Origin: an uncultured Verrucomicrobiae bacterium
GTDB lineage: Bacteria; Verrucomicrobiota; Verrucomicrobiia; Limisphaerales; Palsa-1400
Direction: 5' to 3'
NCBI GenBank assembly: GCA_963702845.1
Contig: OY969763.1
Coordinates: forward strand, 1,664,001-1,728,000
Length of the DNA stretch: 64,000 nt
Each line of letters opens with the position of its first letter. Positions within the stretch are counted from its first letter, which is position 1. A program made the position numbers and the translations under genes. The notes beneath the pieces were generated by a model, which was not told the DNA's origin, made no database searches, and saw only the letters and a list, made by a program, of their open reading frames with translations. Below, piece after piece: positions 35,307 through 63,951 of this stretch.

Positions 35307-35397
35307 GTTGAATATCGCTGCTCAGGCACGGCGCGTCGAGGGCTTCGCATGGAAAAGACAGCCAATCGCGCCGCTGCCTGAAGCAGCCTGGTTCGGC
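35307..35397 (-). repeat. attC site (R' degenerate)
   Basis: R'' GCCGAAC; arms CTTCAGGCAGCGGCGCG / CGCGCCGTGCCTGAG. Confidence 0.75.
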
Positions 35398-35418
35398 TCT
35401 GGCACGGTTATACCGGTG

Positions 35419-36003
35419 CTACCTTGATATTGAAATCCGGCCGCCTTCGTAAACATGGTGCTCTATGTTATGAGGAGGGAGCGCCCCCTCGAAGTCCGCC
35501 TCTTCTCGCTCAAATTGCGGCCTAGCCAAGTCGATGACGTATTTGTAGCGTCGCTCAAGGAAGGCCGCCTCGATGGTAAGTTTGTCACCGTCAACGCTCG
35601 CAACCCGCTCGAACCAGTTTGTCTCAGTGGCTCCAATGTTAGAACCGATATGGCTGTCATGAGCCGGGAAATCCTGGACCGTTCTCGTCGCGGTGTTCGC
35701 CAGGTGAACCATTGCCTGCCCACCGTCAAAATCCTTCCCCGTGACGAACAAAATCAAATGCTTGTTGGTAATCGCCAAATAGCAAGGATCAAGCCCCCTG
35801 ACATCTTTGAAATCGCGCCCCCAAATGGTCAGCACCTCAGTATCGGTAGAACCATGGACGTTGAATAGCTGGATGGTGCTGTGCTCGGTGATCTGAACGT
35901 GGTCATCGCGATACCGCTGGCGTGTGGAATGGGAGCAGCCGAACAACGTCACAGAAAGCGCCGCAGCTACGGTCGCTAGCAAATATCGAGGCGCGATGAT
36001 CAT
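35419..36003 (-). CDS. Cassette gene: hypothetical lipoprotein
   Basis: LFGC lipobox; bounded by GTTCGGC and GCCGAAC. Confidence 0.7.
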   Translation of the reverse strand: MIIAPRYLLATVAAALSVTLFGCSHSTRQRYRDDHVQITEHSTIQLFNVHGSTDTEVLTIWGRDFKDVRGLDPCYLAITNKHLILFVTGKDFDGGQAMVHLANTATRTVQDFPAHDSHIGSNIGATETNWFERVASVDGDKLTIEAAFLERRYKYVIDLARPQFEREEADFEGALPPHNIEHHVYEGGRISISR

Positions 36004-36009
36004 CTCGTT

Positions 36010-36072
36010 GCCGAACTATGATTATGCGACGGGGTGCAGCTATAATTTTGATATCCGAACGGTTGGTTCATA
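36010..36072 (-). other. attI-like site, type A
   Basis: TATGAAC-N5-GTTCGGATATCAAAATT..GTCGCATAATCATA-GTTCGGC. Confidence 0.7.
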
Positions 36073-36102
36073 TTGGTTGAGGAGACCTGGTTAGGCGACA
36101 TA

Positions 36103-36660
36103 TCAGTACACCAAGTTTGCGCCAAAACGGGGAATCTTCCCGTTCTTAACTTCATCTCTCCATCGGTCCAGTTCGACGTTGCCATCCTTCCAAAAGTTCC
36201 GACAGAGTTCAAAATATTCTAGAACTACGTCTCGCTCACCTTTATCGAGAAGGTCCTTGGCGAGAGTCATGTTCGGGCCAAAGCTGTCCATGGTCGGAGA
36301 ACCCGGGCTCTTTCCAGCCGCAAGTAAGTACTTTTTGGCTTCAGCTTTCTTACCGTCGCGCAATGCGAGGCGTCCAAGCACTAAATTTCCATCTTGGATA
36401 GCGTTTCCATAATTCCAGTCACTACGATAATTGGGAGCAGATGAAAGCAATTCTATCGCGTATTTGTTGGCATCTTCGAATTTCGCGTTGTTAAAGCTTT
36501 CTTTGGCAGCTTTATCCAACGCGTGGAATCTCTGTAGGTCCGTAGATGCCGAAGCCAGCTTCTTCGTCGCCGCATCGTATCTCTGTTGTGGTGTGGTCGC
36601 GGAACAGGCTCCGATGCCAATTAACAAGAAGCCCAAGAGGAATACTGTAAAGTATCGCAT
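36103..36660 (-). CDS. Cassette gene: TPR-like lipoprotein
   Basis: IGAC lipobox, helical repeats; bounded by GTTAGGC and GCCTAAC. Confidence 0.75.
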   Translation of the reverse strand: MRYFTVFLLGFLLIGIGACSATTPQQRYDAATKKLASASTDLQRFHALDKAAKESFNNAKFEDANKYAIELLSSAPNYRSDWNYGNAIQDGNLVLGRLALRDGKKAEAKKYLLAAGKSPGSPTMDSFGPNMTLAKDLLDKGERDVVLEYFELCRNFWKDGNVELDRWRDEVKNGKIPRFGANLVY

Positions 36661-36670
36661 AAGTGATGCC

Positions 36671-36733
36671 GCCTAACTATGAATATGCGACGGGGTGTCG
36701 CGGTAATTTTGATATACGAACGGCCGGTTCATA
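36671..36733 (-). other. attI-like site, type A
   Basis: 63-bp copy ending GTTAGGC; flank GGTGCAGACAAAAGCAAG shared with the 40841 copy. Confidence 0.7.
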
Positions 36734-36957
36734 CCTGATTTTCCGAATGATGTCGTAGGTGCAGACAAAAGCAAGCGGTGAGGGCGGTTCGAACTCTGGG
36801 CAGTGTTTTTTAGCTCCTTCCACGTTCGCTTATTGCCCCAAGCGATTGTGAATGATTTTTTTGGGGTGTCACCCCGTATGGCTGCGCGGTATTTTGTGGA
36901 GGGTGATTGTTGTCTTTGACAGAATATTGTCGGTAAGAATACCGTCCAACTTGTCAT

Positions 36958-37545
36958 ATGAAGCTGAACGCACTCAGCGCAGTGGGATTTCTTTTGGTGG
37001 GCTGCTTTTTTCAAGGCTGCACGAGTGAGTTGTGGGATCAAAAGTGTTGTAAACCGGCGCCCGAGGCAGAGTTGAAACTGTATCGCGTGGGAGATGACGT
37101 AATGGTGCAGTATAATGAGGTGCGGGAGAGGGACGACCATTTGTGGCGGCGGAACTTCTTGTTGAACGCAAACAAGGCAGCGTTGGCGGCACATCGGGCG
37201 CCGGTTTTCTTTGATGCGAAGAGAGAACAGATGGCCGAGCCGATTCCATTGTTTATTCCAGCGCGGACAAATGTGGTGGATCTGCCGATTTACGCGACGA
37301 GTAAGTTGGAGAATGGCGATCCGTTTTTTCTCGTGCGCAACGGGACCCGTTCCGGGCCGTATGGGTTGCCGGTTTATGACGACCCACATTCAGTCACGGC
37401 TGGGAAGATTTTATTAACACCGGTGGCAGTGGCGGGAGACGCGGCGGCAGCGGTGGTGTTGCGGGACTCCGTCGATTGGTCATCGGATGATGGTTTTCAC
37501 GATCATCTGTTTGCTCCGGCGGATTCGCCACGAGCGAGAAGATAG
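36958..37545 (+). CDS. Hypothetical lipoprotein
   Basis: FQGC lipobox; ILLTPVAVAGD motif. Confidence 0.6.
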   Translation: MKLNALSAVGFLLVGCFFQGCTSELWDQKCCKPAPEAELKLYRVGDDVMVQYNEVRERDDHLWRRNFLLNANKAALAAHRAPVFFDAKREQMAEPIPLFIPARTNVVDLPIYATSKLENGDPFFLVRNGTRSGPYGLPVYDDPHSVTAGKILLTPVAVAGDAAAAVVLRDSVDWSSDDGFHDHLFAPADSPRARR

Positions 37546-37617
37546 GGCGAATGAGCATTCGACCTTGAACGTCGAGCTTTGAGCTGCAAGTCTGTCAGTC
37601 TTTTCGCGCTGAGGCCC

Positions 37618-38283
37618 ATGAATAAATTATTTCTACTGCTGATGCTCGTTGCTGGTAGTTCGAAGGCTGATAGTGCAGCTCTCTTCGATCAGCTTTCTCC
37701 TAAGCTTCGGGGTTTTCTAACGGCGAACGTGGGAGCATCTAATGCGTTGAGTGATGTAGTCACAATACAGCAGACCGCACGTGCCATAACTGTTTTTTAC
37801 TTCTACGCCGGAGACAAAACACGGGCAAAGGCAGGTCATTATTGCACCGGCGAGACATCGGCGGTTATTAATCTGAACGCAGAACTGGAGCCGATCGATG
37901 AGTACACTTGCCTGCTTTTTGAATTAATCAACTTGAGCTGCCAGGAGCGATTTCAAGAGGTCTTCGTCAAAGCGATACAGAAGGAAATTTCCAGAAAAGC
38001 ATATCCAAGGGAAGTGTTGAAGATTGAATTTGAAGCGATGCAAAAGACGAAGGGGCTGCTCCGTAAGCTGAAGCCCTCAGCCAAAGAGGTTGATTCTTCA
38101 GATTCTTATAAAAAATTTTTAAAGTCGGCGGATACGTTTGACGCGTTTTATGCGGAGCTGAAAAAGCAAGCGGCAGATGGGCACTACGATCCTATCAAGA
38201 ACTACGAACGCCAATATGATCTGTACCTCGAGCAATACAAAAACAGCAAGGGGGCGGGTTACCTCAAAGGGGACGGCCCTTAG
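37618..38283 (+). CDS. Hypothetical secreted protein
   Basis: Signal peptide MNKLFLLLMLVAG. Confidence 0.6.
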   Translation: MNKLFLLLMLVAGSSKADSAALFDQLSPKLRGFLTANVGASNALSDVVTIQQTARAITVFYFYAGDKTRAKAGHYCTGETSAVINLNAELEPIDEYTCLLFELINLSCQERFQEVFVKAIQKEISRKAYPREVLKIEFEAMQKTKGLLRKLKPSAKEVDSSDSYKKFLKSADTFDAFYAELKKQAADGHYDPIKNYERQYDLYLEQYKNSKGAGYLKGDGP

Positions 38284-38423
38284 GCGTTGGATTTTCGACA
38301 CCGTCTGCGGGGTAATCCATGTACAACGGATACCAAAAGCCCACCACAGCGACGGCAATCGTTGCACCTGCAGTCGCTAACGCGCTGAGCCGTCGATCAT
38401 CTGAAAGCCACGCGTTCATTTAT

Positions 38424-38524
38424 TGCTAACGCAAAAACTCAGCACGGCGGGCCACTGACTCAATGATTGTAAAGGCAGCGTCAACCCGCTCCCGCAACGC
38501 GGGGCTGGAGCGCTCTGGTTAGAC
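38424..38524 (-). repeat. attC site (family shared with 40379, 53087, 63859)
   Basis: R'' GTCTAAC, R' GTTAGCA; conserved core CGGGCCACTGACTC..GTAAA.GCAGCGTC. Confidence 0.8.
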
Positions 38525-38531
38525 CACGTGC

Positions 38532-38860: not shown

Positions 38861-38951
38861 GTCTAACCGTGACGCTCAGCCGCGCGGCGCCAACCGCGTA
38901 CGAAATGCGTGAGGGAAGCAATCGCCGCGTCGGCTGGAGTAAAAGTTAGAT
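38861..38951 (-). repeat. attC site
   Basis: R'' ATCTAAC, arms CTCCAGCCGACGCGGCG / CGCCGCGCGGCTGAG, R' GTTAGAC. Confidence 0.85.
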
Positions 38952-39300: not shown

Positions 39301-39307
39301 ACGTTGC

Positions 39308-39412
39308 ATCTAACGATCAAGATGACCGATGATGAGGGGCGCGCCACCGGCTCCGGATTGGAACACGCGGCTGCCCGCGCTCCTCCTCATACGGTCCATC
39401 GCAATGTTGGCC
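39308..39412 (-). repeat. attC site
   Basis: R'' GGCCAAC, arms GATGGACCGTATGAGG / CCTCATCATCGGTCATC, R' GTTAGAT. Confidence 0.8.
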
Positions 39413-39892: not shown

Positions 39893-39908
39893 CGCGACTG
39901 TTATACAT

Positions 39909-39971
39909 GGCCAACTATGATTTTGCGACGGGGTGTCGGTATTATTTTGATAGACGAACAGTCGGTTCATA
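39909..39971 (-). other. attI-like site, type A
   Basis: 63-bp copy ending GTTGGCC. Confidence 0.65.
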
Positions 39972-40002
39972 AGCGCGTTTGCTCGATGACTGGGAAATGG
40001 GA

Positions 40003-40374: not shown

Positions 40375-40378
40375 ATTC

Positions 40379-40482
40379 TCTTAACTCAATTCAGATCAGC
40401 GGCGACGGGCCACTGACTCAAGGAGTGTAAACGCAGCGTCAACCCGCTCCCGCAAAGCGGGGCTGGAGCGGCCTGGTTAGGT
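40379..40482 (-). repeat. attC site
   Basis: R'' ACCTAAC, R' GTTAAGA; closely similar to the 38424 site. Confidence 0.8.
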
Positions 40483-40830
40483 CGTGTGTTTCGATTGATC
40501 ATGACGGTCAATACACTGATCGCATACCCATCGACCATCGAGTTCGCATCCCGGCAATAAACCGTCGATGGCTTCGAGCTTCGTGCGGTCTGTCGCCCAG
40601 GCAGAACAATAGAAGCAACGTCGCGCATTGGTCCCGAGATCAGGTTTTTCCAAGTATCGGAAATTCGTGCACTGACGACTCCACTCGACTGACTCGGACG
40701 ACAGTGACTGCTGGATCGCTTGCTTCATTCGAGCAGCGATGCGGTCGCGCACCTCTCGCATTTCTGCGTCGTCGCGCGGTGCTTTCACGAGGATGCTCGT
40801 CGATATAAGGATGTCTTGATGCGCGCCCAT
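40477..40830 (-). CDS. Cassette gene: small protein with two CxxC pairs
   Basis: CFYC..CDQC; stop inside R''; bounded by GTTAGGT / ACCTAAC. Confidence 0.7.
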   Translation of the reverse strand: MGAHQDILISTSILVKAPRDDAEMREVRDRIAARMKQAIQQSLSSESVEWSRQCTNFRYLEKPDLGTNARRCFYCSAWATDRTKLEAIDGLLPGCELDGRWVCDQCIDRHDQSKHTT

Positions 40831-40840
40831 AGTACAGGTG

Positions 40841-40903
40841 ACCTAACAATGTTTATGCGACGGGGTGTCGCGGTCATTTTGATATACGAACAGTCGGTTC
40901 ATA
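40841..40903 (-). other. attI-like site, type A
   Basis: 63-bp copy ending GTTAGGT. Confidence 0.7.
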
Positions 40904-41059
40904 TCTGAGTTTCCAAAGGATGTCTCTGGTGCAGACAAAAGCAAGTGACAAGGGGAGCGGATTAGGGCAACGGTGAATCAGTTCACCGCGCGGTACGCGT
41001 CTACCAACAGTTATTGCGCTGTTGGCTTATCGCCTCCCCAACCTTACTGTGCTTTTACA

Positions 41060-41518
41060 ATGCTTAAACACCTTGTCTCTCTGGTCGCTGTTCTCACCAC
41101 AGCGTTCGTTGTGCTGACCGGGTGCGTAAAACCAACCTATGCGCCGTTGAAGTTTTATATTGTCAGCGAACAGCCATTGCAGGGCGGCAATCTGATAGAC
41201 ACTGCGACGCTTCCCAAGGTGGGGTACATTTCCGCAACGCCAGACATGATTGTAACGAATATCCTCGATGTCTACCGGGATGATCACTCCTCATCAACGT
41301 TGACAGTGGTGTTGCATCCTGCGGATGCTATTCTTTTCGGCGCGTTGACCGGAAGGGCAATCTACAAGCGGCTGCTCGTTTCGGTGGGCGATACACCAGT
41401 GACCGCTCCTCGGGTGATGTCAGCGATCCCAATCGGCCGATTTGTCATTGAATTTGCAAGCGAGTCGGACAGGAAGAAAATCCAACCACAACTCGAGAAT
41501 CTTGTTTCCGCTAAGTAA
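41060..41518 (+). CDS. Lipoprotein with SecDF P1-head-like domain
   Basis: LTGC lipobox; FGALT..KRLLVSVGD..TAPRVMSAI. Confidence 0.6.
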   Translation: MLKHLVSLVAVLTTAFVVLTGCVKPTYAPLKFYIVSEQPLQGGNLIDTATLPKVGYISATPDMIVTNILDVYRDDHSSSTLTVVLHPADAILFGALTGRAIYKRLLVSVGDTPVTAPRVMSAIPIGRFVIEFASESDRKKIQPQLENLVSAK

Positions 41519-41598
41519 AATGACCGTTTCGTTGTTAATGAGCTGAGGCGCATGCGGCGGAATTGATGCGCAGGCGTGAACATTAAAGGTGTTGAACA

Positions 41599-41889
41599 TT
41601 GAAGTTTGAACTGCGAGGCTCGGAGTTTGGAATGATTGTTGCGCGGCGAATCAATTGGTTGCTTACGATTGTCGTTGTTGTGATGTGTTTTGCCGTAAAT
41701 CTTAATGGCGAAGTTTTTGGCTTGAGTGCGCCTACTTCATATTGGTTTGCGACGGCATGTGTCACTACTGGTTTAGTTTGCGTGGGATTCTTGATGGCAA
41801 AGAGAGATTCGTCACTATTGGTTTTTTCCAGCGCAACGATTTACCTTGGGGTTCTTTTTACACTGATCTGCAATCGACTGGGTATATGA
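41599..41889 (+). CDS. Small three-TM hypothetical protein
   Basis: Hydrophobic ORF coupled (ATGA) to the next gene. Confidence 0.45.
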   Translation: MKFELRGSEFGMIVARRINWLLTIVVVVMCFAVNLNGEVFGLSAPTSYWFATACVTTGLVCVGFLMAKRDSSLLVFSSATIYLGVLFTLICNRLGI

Positions 41890-42227
41890 GCCGTCTTCGA
41901 AAAATATTGTTGCTGGGCGCAGTTGCGGTAGCGGTCGGCGTCGCCGCCCAAGCTCCGGGCCAGACCAATGTTTATTTCGTGGCACCGTATTCCGGAGGAA
42001 CTTCTTACAGACAACTTTGTTCGTTTGAACTCCCATTCCCGCCATACCACTACAAGTTTACACAGCGAAGTCGCTACGAGGACGCGGACGGTTTGGTTAT
42101 CATCGACGTCGGGCATGAAAAGGAACGAGGCGGCGTTCTACGTCGATATCTGGATGTCGAATGCGGCACAGAGTCATTTACCCTGCCACTGGACCGCCCG
42201 CAACCGCTGCGCCAAACGGTTCGGTGA
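41886..42227 (+). CDS. Small secreted hypothetical protein
   Basis: Signal peptide MSRLRKILLLGAVAVAVGVAAQA. Confidence 0.55.
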   Translation: MSRLRKILLLGAVAVAVGVAAQAPGQTNVYFVAPYSGGTSYRQLCSFELPFPPYHYKFTQRSRYEDADGLVIIDVGHEKERGGVLRRYLDVECGTESFTLPLDRPQPLRQTVR

Positions 42228-42239
42228 TATTCGAACGAG

Positions 42240-42466
42240 TTAACTCCTTCGTCGCCGCTCCGCGAAAGTGACACTCCGTTTTGGGTGGTTTGGTCCCGGC
42301 ACCGAAGGGCGTGTTGCCGAATCTGGAATTGGTGACGATGGACGCAACCCCAATTGGGGTAGAGGTGTTTTTTGGTCGTGTTACCCAGGGTAGCCCAGCA
42401 CTTTGCCGTGCGCCTTCAAAGTATTGGGCAACCTTGGGCTAAGTGATGGAACCGCGTTGCGGTTCT
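42240..42466. repeat. REP/REPIN-like cluster
   Basis: Copy of 33343 element plus ACCCCAATTGGGGT, CCCAGGGT..ACCTTGGG and AACCGCGTTGCGGTT palindromes. Confidence 0.65.
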
Positions 42467-42984
42467 GGTGGGCGAAGAAGTGGAAAATGGGATCCCCTGT
42501 GCATTTGACCGCAAATTGACCAGGTCAAAACGCGTGTTTCTTCTTTGTTTTCAACGGGTTGTCGCGTACGGGGTGTTTACATTTTGACCGCTGTTCCCGG
42601 GCTTGGGTTTCCTCTTTAACGTGGGATTGTGAATAATTTTACCGAAAAATCTTGGGGCGACACCCCGTAACTGTCCAACCCCCCTCTGTAAAATGGACGG
42701 CATGAAAACAAATGTCTCACGACAACCAGAGTGGTGGGCGGCACTGCCCGAATCGGAAAAAGCAGTCCTGCGGAATGTAGTTAACGCAATTCGAACACTA
42801 AGAAGAAGCAGGTCCCCGCAGATAGCCGGCGCGGCTCAGAAATGGGATGCGAGCATCTGCTGCTTTATCAAGACGCGGTTAGTAAATCGGCGCGGCAAAC
42901 GCTCATTTGACTCGTCGGCGCCCGCCTCCTCGGCCGGTCCGGCTTCTGCCTCCGGCAAACTCCTTTCGCCGGTTCCCAACCGGC

Positions 42985-43425
42985 TCAAGTCCCACGCAAC
43001 AATCGGGCGTAACCAACAAGGTGGCGCTGGAGCTCGGCATTAACTGGACATTGACTGCGTAACCACTCTATCGCGTCCTCAACATCTTTTGTAAGACGGA
43101 CACCATCATGTCGGCCAACTTTTCCAGCTTCTTCAGCGGTGCCGTGAATTTTTATCTCTACCAGATTAGCGCCGAGGATGTTGGCGGCTCTCGCTGGATG
43201 AAGCGCGTCGGTGCAGCGGGCGGCGATGATCTCAGCCTGGGCCTTGGAGTCGGCGGCGAAGACTTTGAGTATGGCGACGAAATGCTGATTGCTGAAATCC
43301 TGGGATTCGCCGCTCAACACGCGGCTGATGTAGCTGCGGGAGACTCCGGACTGGCGGGAAATGTCGGAATGGGTAATGCCGCGTTCGTCGCTGATGCGTT
43401 GCAGGGTGGTTCCGAGAAAGCTCAT
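42985..43425 (-). CDS. XRE-family HTH repressor
   Basis: ITHSDISRQSGVSRSYISRVLSGE; divergent from early operon. Confidence 0.8.
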   Translation of the reverse strand: MSFLGTTLQRISDERGITHSDISRQSGVSRSYISRVLSGESQDFSNQHFVAILKVFAADSKAQAEIIAARCTDALHPARAANILGANLVEIKIHGTAEEAGKVGRHDGVRLTKDVEDAIEWLRSQCPVNAELQRHLVGYARLLRGT

Positions 43426-43768
43426 TTAGAAGTTGAGGGTTTTTGGTTGAGTGTTGAGTGCCGATCGGCGGCGACATTTTTTTGCATTGCGATGCGCAGT
43501 TTATGCGCCTGTGACGCAATTGCAACGCTTGGGCTGACAACAATTTGCGCGCAAACGGAAGCAACGAGCCGCAAATCACAAAAAATTCGCGTCAACATTT
43601 TTTCAAAACTTTTTTCATGCGCGAAAAGTGTAGCGCCTTTCGCTTACTTGCGCGTCTTTTCGCGAATCTTCGCAAGGGGTTTTCAGCAGCAAAAAAGAAA
43701 ATTCAAAACGTGCGCTATAACTGGCTCGTTCGCCAAAACAGTAGCGCGATAGGTGAAGCAATTTAATT

Positions 43769-44005
43769 ATGAAAACGGAAAGTCAAACACAAGTGGATAA
43801 CGGGACCGCTCCTGCTGAGCCTTATATCAATAAGCAGGAACTCGCCAAACGAATGAACAAAAAGCTGCGCACGGTGGATAACTGGATGCGGCGCGGAATG
43901 ATTCCCTACTACAAGATCGGCCATTCCGTGCTCTTCAAGTGGAGCGAAGTGGATTCGCACCTCGGATCTACCTGCCGGAAAACGGGGTTTTCATCCACCT
44001 GTTGA
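43769..44005 (+). CDS. Excisionase-like HTH protein
   Basis: YINKQELAKRM..RTVDNWMRRGMIPYYKIGHSVLF. Confidence 0.85.
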   Translation: MKTESQTQVDNGTAPAEPYINKQELAKRMNKKLRTVDNWMRRGMIPYYKIGHSVLFKWSEVDSHLGSTCRKTGFSSTC

Positions 44006-44016
44006 AAACAAAGCAG

Positions 44017-44457
44017 ATGAACTCAAGAAACAAAGGCAAACGCGGAGAGCGATTGTGGCGCGATGAATTGCGCGCCAACGGTTACACGGCGCGGCGCGGC
44101 CAGCAATTCTCCGGCTCGCCTGATTCGCCCGATGTGATTTGCGATGCCTTGCCGTGGATTCACTTCGAAGTCAAAGCGGTTGAGAAGTTGAACATCGAAG
44201 ACGCGATGGATCAAGCGCGGCGGGACGCGGTGGCACCGAAAGCCCAATCAAAAACTCCAATCGTCGCGCACAAGCGCAGCTTCCGCGCGTGGCTCGTCAC
44301 GATGGATTCCGAAACATTTTTCAAATTTCTGCGCGGCGAGCTTCCGCTCGACGGCACGGCGCTTCGCGCAAAAAGCGACGCGTCGGAACCCCGCGCAGAT
44401 CAACAAACCCCAAATCCTGAAAGGAAAGATAATACCAATGAAGATCAAACAGTCTGA
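44017..44457 (+). CDS. Phage Holliday-junction-resolvase-like PD-(D/E)XK nuclease
   Basis: NSRNKGKRGER, SPDV, HFEVK. Confidence 0.7.
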   Translation: MNSRNKGKRGERLWRDELRANGYTARRGQQFSGSPDSPDVICDALPWIHFEVKAVEKLNIEDAMDQARRDAVAPKAQSKTPIVAHKRSFRAWLVTMDSETFFKFLRGELPLDGTALRAKSDASEPRADQQTPNPERKDNTNEDQTV

Positions 44458-45199: not shown

Positions 45200-45266
45200 C
45201 CCATGACGCCAAGGTCATGCGGGGTCAGTCACACGACTGGCCCCGCGTTCTTGGGGAGGAATTTTT

Positions 45267-53052: not shown

Positions 53053-53086
53053 AGAAAAAACTGAAGACTGAGGGACTGAGGACGGA

Positions 53087-53428: not shown

Positions 53429-53480
53429 GGCTAGCGGTTAATATACGACGATTGTTCGCATAATTCTGATAGGCGGACAA
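53429..53480 (-). other. attI-like site, type B
   Basis: TTGTCCGCCTATCAGAATTATGCGAACAATCGTCGTATATTAACC-GCTAGCC. Confidence 0.55.
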
Positions 53481-53509
53481 GACTGTTGTGCTGAGGCAGG
53501 CGCGAAAGT

Positions 53510-53570
53510 GCGGAGTCCAGAGGTTGCAAATCTCTGGCGTGGATGCGAGCCTCACTGGCCCCTGGAGGCG
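53510..53570 (+). repeat. Repeat X copy 1 (copy 2 at 54206-54269)
   Basis: GCGGAGTCCAGAGGTTGCAAATCTCTGGCGTGGA..TGCGAGCC.CAC.GGCC.CTGGAGGCG. Confidence 0.85.
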
Positions 53571-53656
53571 GCGAAGATGATGTAGCGGATGCGTTGCGGT
53601 ATTTGGTCGCGACGAAGTCGCGGGTGGTGGTTCAACGGAAGTTGAGGGGGTTGTGA
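53564..53656 (+). pseudogene. Diverged duplicate of the terminase 3' end
   Basis: GGGEDDVADALRYLVATKSRVVVQRKLRGL* versus GVGGDDTADALRYLVATKSRVVVQRKLRGL*. Confidence 0.9.
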
Positions 53657-53707
53657 CCGACAAGGTTGAAGGATGAAGGCCAAAGGATGAAGTTTTGGAA
53701 TCGAGGC

Positions 53708-53758
53708 TTGTTCTCGTATCGAAAATGTGCGAACGGTTGTCAGATATAAACGTTAGGC
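53708..53758 (+). other. attI-like site, type B, on + strand
   Basis: TTGTTCTCGTATCGAAAATGTGCGAACGGTTGTCAGATATAAAC-GTTAGGC, ending 12 bp before an ATG. Confidence 0.6.
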
Positions 53759-53770
53759 GTCTGCGACACC

Positions 53771-57104: not shown

Positions 57105-57718
57105 GAAAGGAGGTTGGCAGAACAGGGAAAGAGTTCAAGCCGGTGACTAGGTTTAGTCGGAGAACTGAGATTTGAAACGGCTAAGCAGTGAATCGCCTTA
57201 GCGATTCGACTGCGTGCCAGAGTAACCCAGCGTCGGGGTTGGTGGTGTCTTTGGGCGTCTTTGTCTTTGGGGCGAGCCGGTAGGCGAGGCGGTTGTCTTT
57301 ACGGGTTCGCGTTGGCGCGCGTTCCCTAGCGGGGGAGGGGGCGAAGTGTTGCTAGCTATTCCGAGCGCGCCTGCCCCCTCCCCCAGCAGCCCGCGTCGAC
57401 CGCGATTAGCGGAACTGCGACGTGGTCTGGGGGAGGGGGCGCGGGGGCGGGAGCGGGGAGCGCGCGAGGGGGGCAATGCGCTGGTGCGCGAGGGGGAAAA
57501 TGGGCGGGTGCCGCCGGCGTGCGGCGGGGAAATCAAGGCGGCGAGAGACGCTGGATTATATGAGCAAAGCGAACCGATGTTGTCTTTGGTGGCGCTGTCG
57601 GACGGTTGAGGCGTTTGGTTTGGGTGGAGGGCTAACTGATGCCGAAGGTTCGTACCAGCTTGAGCGACTGGCGGCTGCGCTGCTCTGTGCGCGCGAGTCG
57701 CGCCTCCCTATGTGGAAA

Positions 57719-57752
57719 GCAGCGCAGATGACAGGCGCGCAACTGACTTTGT
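57719..57752. repeat. Identical 34-bp repeat (also 59670-59703, 62296-62329)
   Basis: GCAGCGCAGATGACAGGCGCGCAACTGACTTTGT. Confidence 0.9.
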
Positions 57753-57812
57753 CTTTGTGGGTCGTCGAGCTGCCAATAAGCGTTCGAATCACCGAGAGCG
57801 GACGCGAACGAT

Positions 57813-58382
57813 TCAGCTCACCGATGGTGGCGGCAAGATGTGCTCACGAGTTGTGCGCCAGAGCTGGCGAAGCACTGGCCACGCACCGCAGGCGACAATG
57901 GCAATACCCGACACTAGGATTACACCGGCCATGTGCAGCCGCCCCGGCTCCAAGGTGCGTCCGGCTGTGTCAAAGCCTCTATAAGCGATCAGACTGCCGG
58001 CCAGGATAGCTATCCGCTGAAAGAAAGCGAATCGACAGAGCACGAGGGCTATCAATGGGACGCAGGTGAAAATGAGAATGCTGGATATTTCCCAATAGGA
58101 TGGAACCCAGCAGGCGTCCATGTAGCCGCAAATAAGATAGGTCGTAAATAGAAACAGAAGAATCGATATTGCCCTCCGAGCAATACCCATGCGGGGAAGA
58201 TCACGCCATCCCAAGGCGAATGCTACAAAATAGGCGATTCCCCCGGAAACCATCTCAATCGATGCGAAGTCCTCCATACCGCGGTAAGCGGCACGAAAGA
58301 AGAGAGCCTGCGACCAAGTCCCAGCGGCAAAGACGAAAAGCGTGGTTGAGTGCCAGAGCCGCTGTTGTGCTTTAGATTGCAT
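57813..58382 (-). CDS. Cassette gene: multi-TM protein
   Basis: Follows attC R' GTTAAAT; runs into an attC right arm. Confidence 0.65.
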   Translation of the reverse strand: MQSKAQQRLWHSTTLFVFAAGTWSQALFFRAAYRGMEDFASIEMVSGGIAYFVAFALGWRDLPRMGIARRAISILLFLFTTYLICGYMDACWVPSYWEISSILIFTCVPLIALVLCRFAFFQRIAILAGSLIAYRGFDTAGRTLEPGRLHMAGVILVSGIAIVACGAWPVLRQLWRTTREHILPPPSVS

Positions 58383-58392
58383 TCGTGTCCGC

Positions 58393-58488
58393 ATTTAACG
58401 ACAAGCTGAGCCGCGCCGGACCAAACACCGTGAACCGCGAAGCGGAACTGTCGGCGCAACCGGCGTTGGCTCCAGTGCTGTGTTAGGG
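58393..58488 (-). repeat. attC site
   Basis: R'' CCCTAAC, arms CTGGAGCCAACGCCGG / CCGGCGCGGCTCAG, R' GTTAAAT. Confidence 0.88.
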
Positions 58489-58495
58489 CGCTTGG

Positions 58496-58909
58496 TCATT
58501 GTGGTGGCATCCTCTCAAGGATCTCGACACTCTTAACAATCCGACAAGCATCGTCAGAGTATGAAATTCTTGCTCGGTAATTCTGATAGCCACAACGTCG
58601 CGACGAGCCTTGCAGCCGATAAATCTTACCGCGTGGCTCATCGGATGCCTGCAAAGGTCCGACAATGTTGGAAAACATGATGTGACCGCAATTGTCGCCA
58701 TGCGCTTTCTCGTAATCCCTCATCGCCCGCTTGTAAAATTCCACGTTCTTCTGAAACTGCCTCTCCGCATCGTCCAAACTCGCAATCGCCTGTCCTGCCT
58801 CTGAATTGCGGGAAACTCCAATCTTGGTGACGCCCGACTGGCAGCCAGTGATAACAACTGCGGCGGCGCAAAATGAAAGTAAGATGAACTTGTGGTGCGT
58901 GTTTGACAT
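58496..58909 (-). CDS. Cassette gene: lipoprotein
   Basis: ITGC lipobox; ATG 2 bp after GTTAGGC. Confidence 0.7.
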   Translation of the reverse strand: MSNTHHKFILLSFCAAAVVITGCQSGVTKIGVSRNSEAGQAIASLDDAERQFQKNVEFYKRAMRDYEKAHGDNCGHIMFSNIVGPLQASDEPRGKIYRLQGSSRRCGYQNYRARISYSDDACRIVKSVEILERMPPQ

Positions 58910-58911
58910 CG

Positions 58912-59161
58912 GCCTAACTCTGATTATGCGACACGCTGTCGCGGTCATTTTGATATACGAACGGTTGGTTCATATTGGTTGAGGAGATTATTGTTATGCT
59001 GGCGCTGCGAATCAAGCGCAACACAACGCGCTCGCGAGCACGGCGACGACATGCCGGAGATCCGCGATTGGAAGTGGAGTGCGTAGCGGCAGACCAACGA
59101 GGCGCTATTTATCAATTTAGCTCGGGAGGTTTCACACAGGCTCGCGACTTGTTAGGCGTCA
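58912..59161 (-). repeat. About 250-bp composite spacer ending in a type A attI-like site (58912-58974)
   Basis: Closely similar to 63131-63380; begins TGACGCCTAACAAGTCGCGAGCCTGTGTGAAACC. Confidence 0.85.
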
Positions 59162-59566
59162 TTGGAATTGGCCCGGTCCAAGCAGATAACGATAAAAGCC
59201 TGGATACTCACTGCGCAGCAGCGGAATGACGACAGCCGGAGCGTGAGTCCCACAATTAAACCTCTTCCTTTTCACGTAAACAATGGCGGAACGTGAATCT
59301 GACGAATCCAACTCAATGCGACCGCCCGAGTCGCGCATGTCCTGACTCAAATGCTCTGGTTCGTAGTCCAACATCACGAGCACTCTGCCGTCAGCCAACG
59401 TAAGGCGATTGCTCGACACAGACGTAATGGCAATCGAATTGGTGAGCGGATCGTTGTTGAGCGGGATGGGACGATAAAAACTGACGCCGACCGTGACTGC
59501 GAGGAAGGTGAAGAGAGTTACGATACCGACTGCGCCCCAAACCGTAACTCTGACGATGTGTTTCAT
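59159..59566 (-). CDS. Cassette gene: membrane-anchored protein
   Basis: N-terminal TM; stop abuts GCCTAAC. Confidence 0.65.
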   Translation of the reverse strand: MKHIVRVTVWGAVGIVTLFTFLAVTVGVSFYRPIPLNNDPLTNSIAITSVSSNRLTLADGRVLVMLDYEPEHLSQDMRDSGGRIELDSSDSRSAIVYVKRKRFNCGTHAPAVVIPLLRSEYPGFYRYLLGPGQFQ

Positions 59567-59569
59567 TAC

Positions 59570-59621
59570 GCGTAAGAATTAATCCGCGACAACAGTTCGC
59601 ATAGTTTTAATCCGCGAACAA
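59570..59621 (-). other. attI-like site, type B
   Basis: TTGTTCGCGGATTAAAACTATGCGAACTGTTGTCGCGGATTAATT-CTTACGC. Confidence 0.55.
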
Positions 59622-59729
59622 GGGTTTTTAGGGTCGAGGTTCAAAGTTCCGACGTTTCGTGTGGATAACGCAGCGCAGATGACAGGCGCGCAACTGACTT
59701 TGTTATTTAACCACTAACGGTGTTTGTGG

Positions 59730-60371
59730 TTATTTCGCAAGGAGCGGTTTCAGTGCGGCCTCGATTACGGCAAGGTCACGAGGGGTGGCTTCAATATACA
59801 AGGAGTTGATACCGTCAGCATAAAAGTGCGTTGCTGAGGACCAATCGATGTTTATGGTTTTCAGCCATTTGTTCAGATTGTCGTTGAAAGCAACATCGCG
59901 ATGTTTGCCGCCTTCCGGGAGCGAAAACCTTTGCAACAGGTACCTGACCTGTCGAGTCGAAATTCTTTCCACTGCAGTTCGCCGCTACTCGCGCTGTTTC
60001 GTTGTGTGCGCATTGCAAGCCACTTTCCGGTCGCAGCTGATTTCGGGGGGTCCGTCGGTAAGATATCTTCAGGGGCGGAGTAATTTTTTATACTCGCGTT
60101 CTTCACGAGCTGCGGCCCTGTTTCTGTAGTTAGCTTCTTTCACCAAATCCAGATAATACCCGGCGGCTTTGTTCTTTGGGTCAAGTTTCAACGCGAGTTT
60201 AAGGGATTCCGCAGCATCCGCTAACTTGCCCATCTCGTATTGCTGTTTACCTTTTAGGACCAGCGCTCGAAGGGGTTTGTCTTGAATCGGATTAGCAATG
60301 GCATTGGTGATTTCGGCCCGTGCAAAAATCGAAGTGAGGAAGAAAATGACCGCGAAACTCCACGTTTTCAT
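59730..60371 (-). pseudogene. Probable frameshifted secreted TPR protein
   Basis: Signal peptide + TPR to 60069; overlapping frames 59873-60106 and 59730-59972 appear to continue it. Confidence 0.4.
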
Positions 60372-60465
60372 TTTTCCAAGGGTGCCTGTCGCCGGCCGAA
60401 GAGTCAACGAGGCGGTTTGTTGGTGTGTCGCTGTCAGGTGCGCTTGTCGTCGATGTTGTTTTGTG

Positions 60466-60873
60466 TTAACGCAGCGTAGATGACCTCATAGGAAAAAGCC
60501 GCAACAATGCTAGCGAGCCGATTATGCTCGCTGCGACGCCCGCAGATGCGAACGCAACGAAGGGTAACGCCTCCCCGATTGAAAGACCGGCAAATAGGGG
60601 CAGAGCTACAACGACGGCGTAAGTCCCAATCACCGAGGGCAGCAAGTCAGACAGAGCCTCGGCGCTAAACCCCCTGCGCCCGATGAAACCTCCGCAAAAG
60701 AACATCACCAGAACGGTAAGCATAAAGGCTTCGGGAGCATGGTTACGGCCGTCCCTGATATTTCCCAGCGGTACGAAGGCCACAAAAATTAACCCTGCAG
60801 CGACAGCCGCCAGAATGGCGCCCGTAATGAATCCGAGCGCGTTTCTAAAGAATGATGGTTCGCGGATGTTCAC
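60466..60873 (-). CDS. Cassette gene: four-TM protein
   Basis: Follows R' GTTAAGC; stop inside an R''-like CGTTAAC, rest of attC missing. Confidence 0.65.
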   Translation of the reverse strand: MNIREPSFFRNALGFITGAILAAVAAGLIFVAFVPLGNIRDGRNHAPEAFMLTVLVMFFCGGFIGRRGFSAEALSDLLPSVIGTYAVVVALPLFAGLSIGEALPFVAFASAGVAASIIGSLALLRLFPMRSSTLR

Positions 60874-60879
60874 TGAATG

Positions 60880-60973
60880 GCTTAACGGCCCGGCTCAGGC
60901 AGGCCGGGACAACGGTGTGGGATTGCTAACAGACGCCCGATCCCGGCCTTGCCTGCAGCCCGGCTGGTTTTAC
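60880..60973 (-). repeat. attC site
   Basis: R'' GTAAAAC, arms GCTGCAGGCAAGGCCGGGA / TCCCGGCCTGCCTGAGC, R' GTTAAGC. Confidence 0.85.
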
Positions 60974-61318
60974 CTGTTTCTTGAACTCATGGCTGCTCGC
61001 TCGCGACACTGCCTCATATAGTTCACCGACCGTAAACTCTCTAACTCGGCCAGAACAAAGGCCCAAGAAATCCAAACCTTCCGGGTGAAACAAAAACTCG
61101 TCCGGTGCCAAGCCGAAGGTATCTCGGAATCCGCGCTCCTCAGAGGATAGCACTACATCGAACCGTGACTGGACCTCCTTTAAGATATCCACGCCGTCAT
61201 CCCCGGTAACACCCAAGTCCTTCTCGAACTTTGTCGATGGTACGATCGGAGTCTTGTCCGACAAGCCAGTGAACTCGCGGACGAACTTGACGAACTTTTC
61301 AAAGCTTGGTGCGCCCAT
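60926..61318 (-). CDS. Cassette gene: DUF1493/ACP-like protein
   Basis: TKFEKDLGVTGDDG..FHPEG..FTVGEL; reads into attC. Confidence 0.65.
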   Translation of the reverse strand: MGAPSFEKFVKFVREFTGLSDKTPIVPSTKFEKDLGVTGDDGVDILKEVQSRFDVVLSSEERGFRDTFGLAPDEFLFHPEGLDFLGLCSGRVREFTVGELYEAVSRASSHEFKKQVKPAGLQARPGSGVC

Positions 61319-61335
61319 CGATTCCTTTTCCTTCG

Positions 61336-61508
61336 GTATAACTATGATTATGCGACGAGGTGTCGCGGTAATTTTGATATACGAACGGTTGGTTCATATT
61401 GGTTGAGGAGACTATTGTTCTGCTGCCGCTGGGAATCAAGTTTAACACAACGCGCTCGCGAGCACGGCGACGACATGCCGGAGATCCGCGATTGGAAATG
61501 GAGCGGGT
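61336..61508 (-). repeat. Truncated composite spacer with type A attI-like site (61336-61398)
   Basis: Matches 63131 onward for about 170 bp. Confidence 0.85.
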
Positions 61509-61516
61509 GACCGCTT

Positions 61517-62203
61517 TTATGGGTAGCGCTTGAACACCGGATTGGTAGTCATGCCAAACTGGTTTATGATCGGGGGAATTTTTCCGCCGACGTGTTCCTG
61601 CGAGGCGATTTCATCCACCACAATATTTTGCACCGACGTGTTGGTATTCCCTTTTAGACATTCAAACACTTCCTTACGCTGTGTGTCTCCGCGAATCGAG
61701 AGGTAGATGATCGGTGCTATGTTATCTCGTTGGGCTGGCGAGTTTATCACACGTATCCACACGAAAGGATACTCGTCGTTAACTATTCTCTCAAAGGGAG
61801 ATGGCCCCATCCAGGCTCTTGGCACCAGAATATCCTTTTCGTGCAACCACGTTGGATGGTTCAGAAGCTCAGCAATGTTGCCCAGCGTCATTCCACTGTG
61901 GAAGTGACGAGCAAACATCTGTAGAACTGCGCGACTACGATGATCCACACTATATTGAGGATTGTTAGCGATGTCGTTCCAAAACTTCGGCGGCTCGTTT
62001 GTCAAACCAGAGTCCCGAAGCAATCCCAAAGCCGAAAGCAAGTTATTCGTACTCGCATGGACGTCTGCGATCTTCTTTAGAGCGGTGTGAAATTGCCGTT
62101 CCTGAATATGGGAGTTGGTGGTCGATTGTGCTTCTTGCGGTGTAACGCACCCGCCGAGCAGCAGCAATGCACCCGATAGCAGAACCTTAAGCGCGACTTT
62201 CAT
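61517..62203 (-). CDS. Cassette-type gene: lipoprotein
   Basis: LGGC lipobox. Confidence 0.7.
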   Translation of the reverse strand: MKVALKVLLSGALLLLGGCVTPQEAQSTTNSHIQERQFHTALKKIADVHASTNNLLSALGLLRDSGLTNEPPKFWNDIANNPQYSVDHRSRAVLQMFARHFHSGMTLGNIAELLNHPTWLHEKDILVPRAWMGPSPFERIVNDEYPFVWIRVINSPAQRDNIAPIIYLSIRGDTQRKEVFECLKGNTNTSVQNIVVDEIASQEHVGGKIPPIINQFGMTTNPVFKRYP

Positions 62204-62210
62204 TAACTTG

Positions 62211-62245
62211 CGCCAACAGTTCGCATAGTTTTAATCCGCGAACAA
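62211..62245 (-). other. attI-like site, type B (short form)
   Basis: Identical to the 59570 site up to the internal GTTG, then diverges as GTTGGCG. Confidence 0.55.
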
Positions 62246-62361
62246 GGGGTTTTTGAGGTTCAAGGTTCAAACTTCCGGCGCTTCGTGTGGATAACGCAGC
62301 GCAGATGACAGGCGCGCAACTGACTTTGTCTTTAAGCAGCGTTGGAATTACCAAGAGCGGA

Positions 62362-62457
62362 CGCGAACGCTCAGCTCGCCGATGGCGGCCCCTGCTCGGC
62401 GCCCGATTTGTCGGACGGCGCCGTTGGGCAGCCACCCGGTGAAGCACCGGCTTCGAC
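62362..62457 (-). repeat. attC site (degenerate R'')
   Basis: Arms CTTCACCGGGTGGCTGCCC / GGGCCGCCATCGGCGAG, R' GTTCGCG. Confidence 0.65.
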
Positions 62458-62811
62458 ATCCTGTGAGGAAATTACACGTGGGGTGAAGGGCTTCCTCACC
62501 CACAACTCTCGCTCGGTAAAGGTAAACCTGTACTCAACCTTATCTCTGTCAACAATGCGCAGCCAGTTGTGGCCTGTCCGGCCCGTTGAGGGCATGTGGG
62601 AGACGAATCTGATCGACTCACCATCGTAGCCAACGTCGTAGATTATGAACTGCTCCCCATCGAAGGGGTCAATTCCCGTGACACGAAACTGTCCATCGGC
62701 GACTGAAATCGTGTATTCGGTGCGGGGATAATCGCAGGAATCGTCTGGGCACATGGCAACCCACGTCCCACAAAGCGGATGATCGGGCGTAACTGGATAA
62801 ACGTATGACAT
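62371..62811 (-). CDS. Cassette gene: hypothetical protein
   Basis: ATG 8 bp after R' GTTCGGC. Confidence 0.65.
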   Translation of the reverse strand: MSYVYPVTPDHPLCGTWVAMCPDDSCDYPRTEYTISVADGQFRVTGIDPFDGEQFIIYDVGYDGESIRFVSHMPSTGRTGHNWLRIVDRDKVEYRFTFTERELWVRKPFTPRVISSQDVEAGASPGGCPTAPSDKSGAEQGPPSAS

Positions 62812-62819
62812 GGGACTAT

Positions 62820-62918
62820 GCCGAACGCTGGAACTCACACACGTCGGACCAAACGACGCTGACCGCGAAGCGGAACTGAGAGTGCCATCCGGCGTTGTGT
62901 GCAGTGATTTTGTTAGAC
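62820..62918 (-). repeat. attC site
   Basis: R'' GTCTAAC, arms CTGCACACAACGCCGGA / TCCGACGTGTGTGAG, R' GTTCGGC; related to 58393 site. Confidence 0.88.
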
Positions 62919-63119
62919 ATCGTTTTTCTTTCGTCCAAGCAGTGCATGAACAATGGTGAAAATTATCCAGGCACACGCAATAGTAATGGCTGGTCCGTAA
63001 AACATTTCGGATGTCGAAAGGCCATTAACCAAATCCAGAGAGCGCAACAGTGCGAGCATCCCGACGCCAACAGCGTAAAGAACAAGCGAAAGCGGTAAAG
63101 CGATCTTCAAAAGTTTCAT
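62913..63119 (-). CDS. Cassette gene: two-TM protein
   Basis: Stop inside R''. Confidence 0.65.
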   Translation of the reverse strand: MKLLKIALPLSLVLYAVGVGMLALLRSLDLVNGLSTSEMFYGPAITIACAWIIFTIVHALLGRKKNDV

Positions 63120-63130
63120 ACGCTCACGAG

Positions 63131-63380
63131 GGCTAACAATGATTATGCGACGGGGTGTCGCGGTAATTTTGATATACGAACGGTTGGTTCATATTGGTTG
63201 AGCAGACTATTGTTCTGCTTCCGCTGCGAATCAAGCGTAACAGAACGCGCTCGCGAGCACGGCGACGACATGCCGGAGATCCGCGATTGGAAGTGGAGCG
63301 GGTAGCTCCACACGAACAAGGCGCAATCTATCAATTTAGCTCGGGAGGTTTCACACAGGCTCGCGACTTGTTAGGCGTCA
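63131..63380 (-). repeat. About 250-bp composite spacer ending in a type A attI-like site (63131-63193)
   Basis: Second full copy of 58912-59161. Confidence 0.85.
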
Positions 63381-63399
63381 AAGCACCAGACATAAGTTC

Positions 63400-63849
63400 T
63401 TACTCATCTACACAGCGAACTGCTTCAACGACCTCTATTCGGAAACAGCGAAATGACATCCTTACACCCGCACCTGGCTCAAAACTCACAATAAGATATG
63501 GAGGCAATCTCTCACCGTTTGTGAACGTGCCGCGCTCTTGAGTGTTGATGGACAACTCAACTATCTGGTTGATGTGGTCAAAGCGATCCATCTTAAAATC
63601 ATCTACATCGTGAAAGCGCAATGTGACCAGAACATCGTGGCCAGAATGTGTAGCTCCTCGTTGCGTGGCTCCCAATACTCGAAGCTTCGCTGTCACGACA
63701 GGAAAGACATTGCGGTCATCCCAATCGCCCGGCTTCACGTCGCCGCGCCACAAGTGCAAGTCAAAAATCTCCGCATCATGGAATGACGGCCATTCGCCAA
63801 AAAACGCCGTCAGCTTTTGGCTATCTTGAACAACTGATTGGACGTGCAT
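63400..63849 (-). CDS. Cassette gene: Imm50-like immunity protein
   Basis: FGEWPSFHDAEI..VTLRF.DV..FDHINQI..FRCFRIEV. Confidence 0.75.
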   Translation of the reverse strand: MHVQSVVQDSQKLTAFFGEWPSFHDAEIFDLHLWRGDVKPGDWDDRNVFPVVTAKLRVLGATQRGATHSGHDVLVTLRFHDVDDFKMDRFDHINQIVELSINTQERGTFTNGERLPPYLIVSFEPGAGVRMSFRCFRIEVVEAVRCVDE

Positions 63850-63858
63850 GGGATTGGT

Positions 63859-63951
63859 GCTTAACAACTCAGCTCAGCGGCGGCGGGCCACTGACTCGAG
63901 GATTGTAAACGCAGCGTCCTCCCGCCGTCGGCTGGGGCGCTCTGGTTAGGC
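63859..63951 (-). repeat. attC site
   Basis: R'' GCCTAAC, arms CAGCCGACGGCGGG / CCCGCCGCCGCTG, R' GTTAAGC. Confidence 0.88.

Follow-up and report, generated by a model that had tools for sequence, protein, structure and literature searches.

A family of probable attI-derived docking sites multiplied in a Verrucomicrobiae genome without intI

A window of 64,000 bp (positions 1,664,001-1,728,000 of one 6.03-Mb contig, OY969763.1, from an uncultured Verrucomicrobiae bacterium) contains a 63-bp non-coding repeat that stands at the head of short runs of integron-type gene cassettes. The textbook integron has one integrase, one attI site and one cassette array, with attI normally occurring once per genome, and arrays without an integrase, known as CALINs (clusters of attC sites that lack an integron integrase), are usually read as debris. 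Our analysis indicates that the 63-mer is probably one subfamily, here termed U, of an attI-derived family of docking sites that was multiplied into mini-integrons, each heading its own cassettes. This caution applies to the reading taken as a whole; the repeat family, the crossover at G|TT, the exchange of cassettes, the homology to attI and the absence of intI were each established. Coordinates are those of the window unless marked as genome positions.

Copies of the repeat and their crossover point

BLAST with one copy and nhmmer (E 1e-21 to 2e-23) both recovered the 63-mer at the seven minus-strand positions reported in the initial annotation, namely 36008-36074, 36669-36734, 39908-39972, 40840-40905, 58910-58976, 61334-61400 and 63129-63195. 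Its 44-nt core, with up to three mismatches, was found in four copies but in none of 100 shuffles. The conserved unit is mostly longer, about 107 nt starting with GTTGCGCTTG, and it is this unit that we call U, the repeat first noted being its right 63 nt. Longer copies, all on the minus strand, extend over 63129..63244 (an approximately 107-nt unit starting GTTACGC, with the crossover G at 63137 followed by TTAGCC; repeat families D1-D3), 61334..61449 (G at 61342, then TTATAC), 58910..59025 (G at 58918, then TTAGGC), 40840..40954 (G at 40847, then TTAGGT; family D2) and 36669..36784 (G at 36677, then TTAGGC); the last two share an f-type left half with the copy at genome position 4306663. Only the core is present at 39908..39972 on the same strand (G at 39915, then TTGGCC), directly behind a cassette gene without an intervening attC. 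The minus-strand copy at 36008..36086 (G at 36016, then TTCGGC) is truncated at its left end, and the R'' box of the preceding cassette, GCCTAAC, is fused to it at ...GTCTCCTCAACC.

Likeness between copies ends at G|TT plus four variable bases, and a gene begins close behind, as had been described: the start codon lies 1-25 nt past the crossover G in 28 of the 29 genome U copies with a crossover, and at +1 to +24 in the seven window copies. In five copies the sole open reading frame (ORF) called by our script overlaps the crossover 7-mer, and in the window copy at 39913 the true start was read later, at 39893. The 7-mer of each of 29 U copies was compared with an xxxxAAC box lying -12 to +35 nt around the stop of the first ORF. 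It was exactly complementary to this R'' box in 14 copies and had at most one mismatch in 18, while label shuffling (2000 trials) gave a mean of 2.55 and a maximum of 7 exact matches. Seventeen different 7-mers occur among the 29 copies and the match covaries across them; no pair of the 29 first ORFs is similar at a blastp threshold of 1e-5. All seven pairs quoted earlier for the window are present, four exact (GTTCGGC/GCCGAAC, GTTAGGC/GCCTAAC, GTTGGCC/GGCCAAC and GTTAGGT/ACCTAAC) and three matching at six of seven positions (GTTAGGC/CCCTAAC, GTTATAC/GTAAAAC and GTTAGCC/GTCTAAC).

Comparison of genome loci revealed the exchange of cassettes at this point. The loci at 2198124, 5448982 and 5709529 have the left flank and U in common up to +8/+9 and are alike again from a flank consisting of TTAGAC and sequence of the phosphoketolase gene xfp; between the common flanks lies a single cassette, different in each. 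The loci at 178366 and 4310814 show 96% identity over the stretch -743 to +2 and no relationship past it, and those at 1722976 and 4833676 differ past the crossover, with homology resuming at +1157. Cassettes are thus joined at the conserved G|TT, with the following bases matching their own R'', and we conclude that the G|TT of U is a real integron-type crossover.

An attC site has a long imperfect hairpin on the bottom strand and an R'' box matching the start of its own cassette; U has neither. When the bottom strand was folded, five U segments, drawn from four of the window copies, yielded nothing beyond local hairpins (z +0.1 to -1.9), whereas four canonical attCs of the array, at 38861-38951, 39307-39412, 60880-60973 and 63308-63373, fold end to end (z -2.1 to -3.1), so the proposal that the site does not fold like an attC was borne out. 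Three of the seven array attCs tested (two of the D5 type and 62820-62917) were not end to end in the minimum-energy structure, and the fold test is therefore imperfectly discriminating. The R''-like TATGAAC of U does not complement the starts of left-hand units (GTTAGAC, GTTGGTC and GTTCGTG).

Hand annotation of 35293-63951 yielded a minimum of 10 attCs; intI is absent, and the architecture is that of a CALIN (at least two attCs and no intI nearby). A purpose-written automatic attC finder was dropped because it returned either 5 sites when too strict or 65, many within ordinary genes, when too loose, and attCs were therefore annotated by reading the sequence. Reading in the same way, we counted 1 to 4 genes per run headed by a site, roughly the 1-3 cassettes first suggested; a clear attC is not present behind every gene.

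A second subfamily and the attI of relatives

The U profile, built from the seven window copies, gave 30 strong nhmmer matches in the genome, at about 10 loci. Four copies located elsewhere in the genome served to build a profile, which defined a second subfamily, U', with 51 genome matches at E<=0.01, 47 of which fall outside the 30 U copies, so that U and U' together number about 77 genome copies. The two subfamilies can be aligned across some 60 nt, in which GTTCG, AAAA, GCGA and GTCG are conserved blocks, and the U' profile cross-matches five U copies at E 9e-4 to 8e-3. The four relatives of the 63-mer initially reported in the window proved to be real but weaker, and to belong to U', whose profile detected them at E 1e-6 to 5e-12 (53481, 53707 on the plus strand, 59624 and 62248); the 63-mer profile reached only one (53429-53479, E 0.071). 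Only two of them end in a recognisable crossover 7-mer, GTTAGGC at 53707 and GCTAGCC at 53481. The family in the genome is far larger than the earlier count of about 11 sites.

On the minus strand the U' copies extend over 62202..62253, with a degraded 3' end overlapped by the ATG of the next gene, 59566..59629 (both detected with the U' profile and lying in families D9 and D11), and 53429..53488, which lies behind a 3'-end fragment of a terminase-like gene and ahead of a 92-aa gene with an R''-like AGCTAAC. The plus-strand copy at 53700..53765, also found with the U' profile, ends ...ATATAAAC GTTAGGC and heads the plus-strand gene 53771-54142. Genes behind U' copies in the genome are small (61-308 aa), and many appear to encode membrane or secreted proteins, judged by their first residues. 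A module beginning AAAGTCAGTTGCGCGCCTGTCATCTGCGCTGCGTTATCC is repeated at 57716-57756, 59622-59707 and 62248-62333 (families D4 and D11); it precedes two U' copies and is also found behind two genes sharing a conserved 3' tail. The hairpin CCAGAGATTTGCAACCTCTGG, or a variant of it, lies upstream of U' at genome positions 136438, 397444, 1717481, 2361547, 2817177, 2853025 and 3664872, in several cases itself behind sequence resembling the 3' end of terminase-like genes.

No intI had been noted in the window, and this holds for the whole genome: nothing in the 6.03-Mb contig scored above the cut-off of TIGR02249, the best matches being two Xer-like genes of 306 and 327 aa, and tblastn with the IntI of the relative G015 found only the same two genes, at 27-28% identity. 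Among the 41 genomes searched, a set that includes this one, IntI was found above the cut-off in seven. On contig C220 of G015 (IntI of 316 aa with 281 bits against a cut-off of 265), the 50 nt from the intI start codon to the contig end are TTGGCCATTGTAATACACGAACAACCTGTTGTATATTAATT GTTAGGC, which match the U' profile at E 2e-5. As far as the crossover, this site, which ends ...TATATTAATT G|TTAGGC, can be aligned with U' and U. In six of seven further relative loci (G016, G014, G017, G013:C192, G015:C218 and G011) the same sequence follows directly after the intI 5' end, and in all six the R'' of the next cassette matches the 7-mer; the seventh locus fetched, from G008, was without an intI end. 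In a reciprocal blastn of the G015 platform against this genome only the attI part matched, onto U' copies. Eight occurrences of the motif ATTAATTGTTRRRY were counted here, against one or two in each of 15 of the 30 other family genomes, the reversed-pattern control giving 0-1. An earlier blastn-short search of U against the intI-flanking DNA of relatives had yielded noise only, and the link emerged with the U' profile. On sequence grounds, the intI-adjacent sequence in the relatives is the true attI of this family and is homologous to U'. The suggestion that one copy might abut an intI gene thus failed for this genome but holds for the homologous site in relatives. With the L and R boxes defined as usual for a simple integron site, GCATAA-TCATAG-TTAGGC can be read as such a site, with inverted L and R boxes and without an attC hairpin.

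Several of these relatives seem themselves to have lost integrase sequence. In G016, G014, G017 and G011 no IntI was detected at E<=1e-30, yet an intI 5' end, attI and cassettes persist. G015:C218 is a second such locus, the only IntI match of that genome being on C220, and G013:C192 carries an intact intI plus a second intI 5' end with attI 2.4 kb away. From these intI 5' remnants and doubled platforms, integrase decay and platform duplication seem to be common in this bacterial family.

Amplification of the sites and alternative explanations

The left neighbours of U indicate how the copies multiplied. In 20 of the 30 U copies, U is directly adjoined on its left by the 3' end of a phosphoketolase gene in reverse complement (xfp'; the longest frame matches PF09363 at E 1.7e-11), demonstrating that they were amplified from one locus. 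The intact gene xfp (808 aa) lies at genome position ~2,198.7-2,201.1 kb with one cassette between it and a U copy, and 15 nt separate its stop from the R' box of this single U-headed cassette. The xfp' fragments always contain the stop, their internal ends vary (reference positions 1012-1015, 1032, 1089/1090 and 1120), and they are joined to slightly differing points left of U, giving at least five (about six) junction types. In five copies a constant flank, G|TTAGAC-TGCTTCGC..., stands behind different attCs. In the window, xfp' fragments occur on the plus strand, antisense to the cassettes, at 63250..63305, between the preceding attC and U, at 61456..61510, fused directly to the stop of the gene 61517-62203 without an attC, and at 59033..59090 (all coordinates approximate). 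A parallel case is 53564..53656 on the plus strand, a copy (83% identical; family D10) of the final 93 nt of a terminase-like gene (52960-53052), which precedes the U' copy at 53481 in the same layout as xfp'-U; the true gene end at 53052 adjoins the cassette that follows this U' copy. A search of 40 relatives did not find U, a GTDB-wide scan with a U-core pattern gave 14 singletons only, where about 17 are expected by chance, and the same pattern was not found in a metagenome scan; the U subfamily, undetected beyond this genome, is accordingly young or private.

Two candidate readings were rejected: an ORF antisense to U is not an antitoxin gene, since its 70-aa frame is the C-terminal end of phosphoketolase, and direct comparison excluded the xfp coding sequence as the source of the left part of U. 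At the phosphoketolase locus, 8.5 tandem copies of the 21-nt unit CAGAGCCGCTGAACAACAGTA (60% matches) lie at genome 2197739-2197919, about 160 nt left of U, and the region upstream of this U is duplicated at 5448982 and 5709529.

We propose that each copy would serve as a docking site of the double-stranded type. In its crossover-proximal simple site, GCATAA-TCATAG-TTAGGC, an L and an R box in inverted orientation are separated by 6 bp; upstream there are both a small GC hairpin and the pair AAC-N5-GTTCG. At the G|TT of such sites, an integron integrase would have inserted circular cassettes through their folded attCs, which is why the opening 6 bases of the cassette headed by each copy agree with the R'' of that cassette. 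The copies probably arose by duplication of a segment comprising the site, its cassettes and the flank at the array end, followed by trimming through deletions, which would leave most U copies with a dead xfp 3' fragment and some U' copies with a terminase-like 3' fragment. The joining was presumably done by an IntI that is now lost, or is carried by a visiting element or an unsequenced one. Excised circles of the unit TTAGAC-xfp'-U, bounded by two crossovers and re-inserting at attCs, probably brought the sites to about 10 loci, and the AT-rich, -10-like part of the site (TCAAAA...CATAAT in U; TTGTAA-N18-TATATT in the attI of relatives) may act as a cassette promoter. A bolder version, which we put forward as possible but doubtful, is that attI is here a mobile, self-multiplying module: circles of an attI-type site and intervening DNA would be excised and re-inserted at attCs, and perhaps also at other GTT sites, across the chromosome and inside prophages, seeding promoter-bearing entry points.

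A number of observations weigh against reading U and U' as multiplied, attI-derived docking sites. Besides the restriction of U to this genome, no intI or fragment of it is present, and neither a U nor a U' copy adjoins one here. Homology to an attI linked with an intact intI is clearest for U'; for U it depends on the U/U' alignment and on weak cross-matches (E ~1e-3). Many U' copies head genes without an evident attC, and an exact R'' match was found in only 5 of the 25 U' copies parsed (shuffles: mean 0.5, maximum 4). The xfp'-U junctions are not at one nucleotide, just two of the approximately six types being at GTT. The U copies are conserved no better than the adjacent dead xfp' fragments (both ~90-99%), so the amplification is recent and conservation alone is no proof of selection or function. 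The left end of U, TATGAAC-N5-GTTCGTA, bears attC-like boxes, and at 39913 and 36014 U occupies the place where the attC of the previous cassette is expected.

These last two points would be explained if U and U' were non-canonical attCs, the folded single-stranded site of a left-hand unit such as TTAGAC-xfp'-U, moving as a cassette without an ORF. The left end is indeed laid out like the left-hand site of an attC (xxxxAAC-N4/5-GTTCG), U shares with the attC or 59-base element the crossover G|TTRRRY as well as the xxxxAAC-N5-GTTCxxx pair, and its total length of 63-67 nt is within the range of short attCs. A hairpin GCGA(A)C...GTCGC with two compensatory variants seen by eye (GGGAAC/GTCCC and GTGCAC/GTCAC) and the constant TTAGAC... 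behind different attCs, as an inserted unit would show, also fit. However, the bottom strand of U lacks the imperfect-palindrome fold of an attC, with neither an end-to-end structure nor L''/L' pairing, TATGAAC is not complementary to the left-unit starts GTTAGAC or GTTCGTG, and the homologous site in relatives is beside intI, in the position of attI. We therefore consider an attC identity quite improbable.

It is likewise unlikely that U and U' are an ordinary lineage-specific promoter or terminator repeat, a hotspot of the attG type for chance insertion and not descended from attI. Such a repeat would account for about 77 copies, many of them solitary and outside arrays, and for the one clear U' counterpart in a genome of the same genus, ahead of an apparently orthologous gene with the same first three codons. 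On the strand antisense to U there is a terminator-like hairpin with a T-run, placed where xfp could be terminated, and genome hotspots that recombine nearly like attI are described in the accessible text of one report (bioRxiv 10.1101/2022.09.11.507474). Yet U as the native 3' flank or terminator of xfp found no support, since the DNA downstream of xfp in five relatives is unrelated to U; at the identity of the adjoining xfp 3' coding DNA there (80-87%; protein 79-87%), intergenic DNA may simply have diverged. A search of the whole window against Rfam returned the tmRNA only and nothing within the repeats, and a consensus promoter scan of 58000-64000 gave 5 matches against 4.3 expected; none of these falls in a 63-mer core, and the left portion of the U copy 58910-59025 holds one, at 59015-58987. 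The match to the intI-side attI in seven relative loci, up to the same crossover, argues against an ordinary repeat, and the attG sites described in the accessible text of that report are unique genomic sequences and form no repeat family. Another tyrosine recombinase of this genome, for example XerC/XerD acting on a dif-like core, is very improbable as the enzyme serving the sites in place of IntI. Xer sites have an arm-6 bp-arm layout, which the core GTCGCATAA-TCATAG-TTAGGC shares, and the two Xer-like genes are the only IntI relatives in the genome. No dif of the proteobacterial type was found in it, one loosely similar candidate lying at genome 2,229,179, near the GC-skew maximum. But the cassettes carry canonical integron attCs (RYYYAAC/GTTRRRY), like those of IntI-bearing relatives, in which the same site adjoins intI. 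Descent of U and U' from attI therefore remains the reading we favour, supported by the crossover behaviour, the lack of an attC fold and the attI of relatives, in line with the multiplied, cassette-heading sites first suggested.

Genomic setting and relation to known integron systems

The attCs of the array are all on the minus strand. A canonical short attC (GCCTAAC...GTTCGTG) at 63308..63373 folds end to end on its bottom strand, as do those at 60880..60973 (GTAAAAC...GTTAAGC; z -3.1) and 38861..38951 (ATCTAAC...GTTAGAC; z -2.8), and the canonical attC at 39307..39412 (GGCCAAC...GTTAGAT) forms a long hairpin. The site at 62820..62917 was assigned by its boxes (GTCTAAC...GTTCGGC), its predicted fold not being end to end (z -1.3), and another attC (CCCTAAC...GTTAAAT) lies at 58393..58488. 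The repeated D5 type is found at 38420..38524 (GTCTAAC...GTTAGCA; families D5 and D7; predicted fold not end to end), with further copies at 40378-40483 and 63859-63951 and a partial one at 53086-53124. The last attC of the array, at 35293..35397, with R'' GCCGAAC and a degenerate R', adjoins the 3' end of a convergent WYL-domain gene (34135-35304). Two plus-strand genes (195 and 234 aa; no Pfam match) at 36958-38283 are reversed within the array and have no attCs; they sit just upstream of an f-type U, and the other f-type U has a similar divergent gene, 40973-41518, upstream of it.

A phage-like block at 40973-53052 contains genes for an excisionase-like helix-turn-helix protein, a PD-(D/E)XK nuclease, a PIF1-type helicase, a primase and a terminase-like protein (51658-53052), and a portal gene (DUF4055) is present just past the window at genome 1732453-1734069. 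The terminase and portal genes thus bracket the array segment from 53100 to about 67400, as though a moron site of the prophage had been filled with cassettes. Another U copy (genome 2185545) has Mu gp27-like and terminase genes as neighbours. Some 12 kb ahead of the array end, at 21738-23529, a tmRNA gene (156.6 bits) is directly followed by a gene for a 458-aa tyrosine recombinase, behind which are a zeta-toxin-like gene and one for an AAA/pentapeptide protein; such a layout typically marks a genomic island that has inserted at ssrA.

An insertion sequence (IS) of the IS110 family, with a 383-aa transposase (PF02371), has six genome copies, for example at 1729138-1730821, 2185912-2187604 and 4306977-4308826, and three of the six lie 313-352 nt behind a U crossover. 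At the U locus 4306663 the element clearly splits a D5-type attC just past CGCTCCAGC; the other two U-linked copies have the same left junction, with the attC only partly left on the far side. This behaviour is reminiscent of the IS1111 group, whose members target attCs. The cumulative GC skew reaches its minimum at ~4.75 Mb and its maximum at ~2.21 Mb, about 15 kb from the phosphoketolase locus, and dnaA is at 3.40 Mb, away from the minimum. By skew polarity the cassettes of 29 of the 30 U copies (9 of ~10 loci) point against replication, which would place attC bottom strands on the lagging-strand template.

Compared with the attI of the relatives (G015, G013, G016, G014, G017 and G011), the sites here have the same form, ...CGAACA-N-TGTYGTATATTAATT G|TTAGGC followed by cassettes matching in R''. 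The relatives carry one or two copies by an intI 5' end, whereas here there are about 77 in two diverged subfamilies, none by intI, and many have unrelated gene fragments on their left. The accessible text on the Shewanella prophage M16-3 (PMC9892861) describes an integron alongside a CALIN, both of which begin with an attI of their own. An integrase-less array headed by a second attI copy, the prophage setting with terminase genes nearby, and an attI in which a GC palindrome and an AT-rich stretch are combined with GTT are all shared with our case; M16-3, as far as that text goes, has two copies and an intact intI in the same prophage, while we found dozens in a genome without intI. Cassettes inserted outside complete integrons, at attG sites, give single cassettes and small arrays according to the accessible part of Loot et al. 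(bioRxiv 10.1101/2022.09.11.507474). Insertion at G|WT, use of the site as double-stranded DNA, and single cassettes (single attC sites lacking integron integrases, SALINs) or small CALINs without an integrase resemble what we observed, double-stranded use of U being deduced here from its sequence. The attG sites of that account are unique GWT-bearing sequences unrelated to one another or to attI and attC, whereas U and U' form one repeat family homologous to attI and apparently descended from it. Delta-attI-type cassettes, in the accessible text of PMC12901181, are units bounded by attI-derived sites within arrays that are excised and inserted by IntI1, a route like that proposed for the TTAGAC-xfp'-U unit; they belong, in that account, to class 1 and 2 resistance integrons with one or two sites, and the unit here is only presumed to be mobile. 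No description of a multi-copy attI family was found in the literature that we searched.

A docking site copied dozens of times, with different cassettes behind each copy, means that attI can multiply and that a genome can keep many independent entry points without a resident integrase. Annotation standards that rely on attC and intI only overlook such sites, and the arrangement raises the question whether cassette arrays in prophages arise by attI multiplication. The family described here provides a concrete set of sequences for asking whether attI-bearing units move like cassettes. If attI were indeed mobile in this genome, the copies would amount to a 'distributed integron' kept ready for any integrase arriving in trans, and many CALINs and single cassettes elsewhere may hide unrecognised attI copies. 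If each copy drives its own short array, the limit that only the first cassettes are expressed would be removed.

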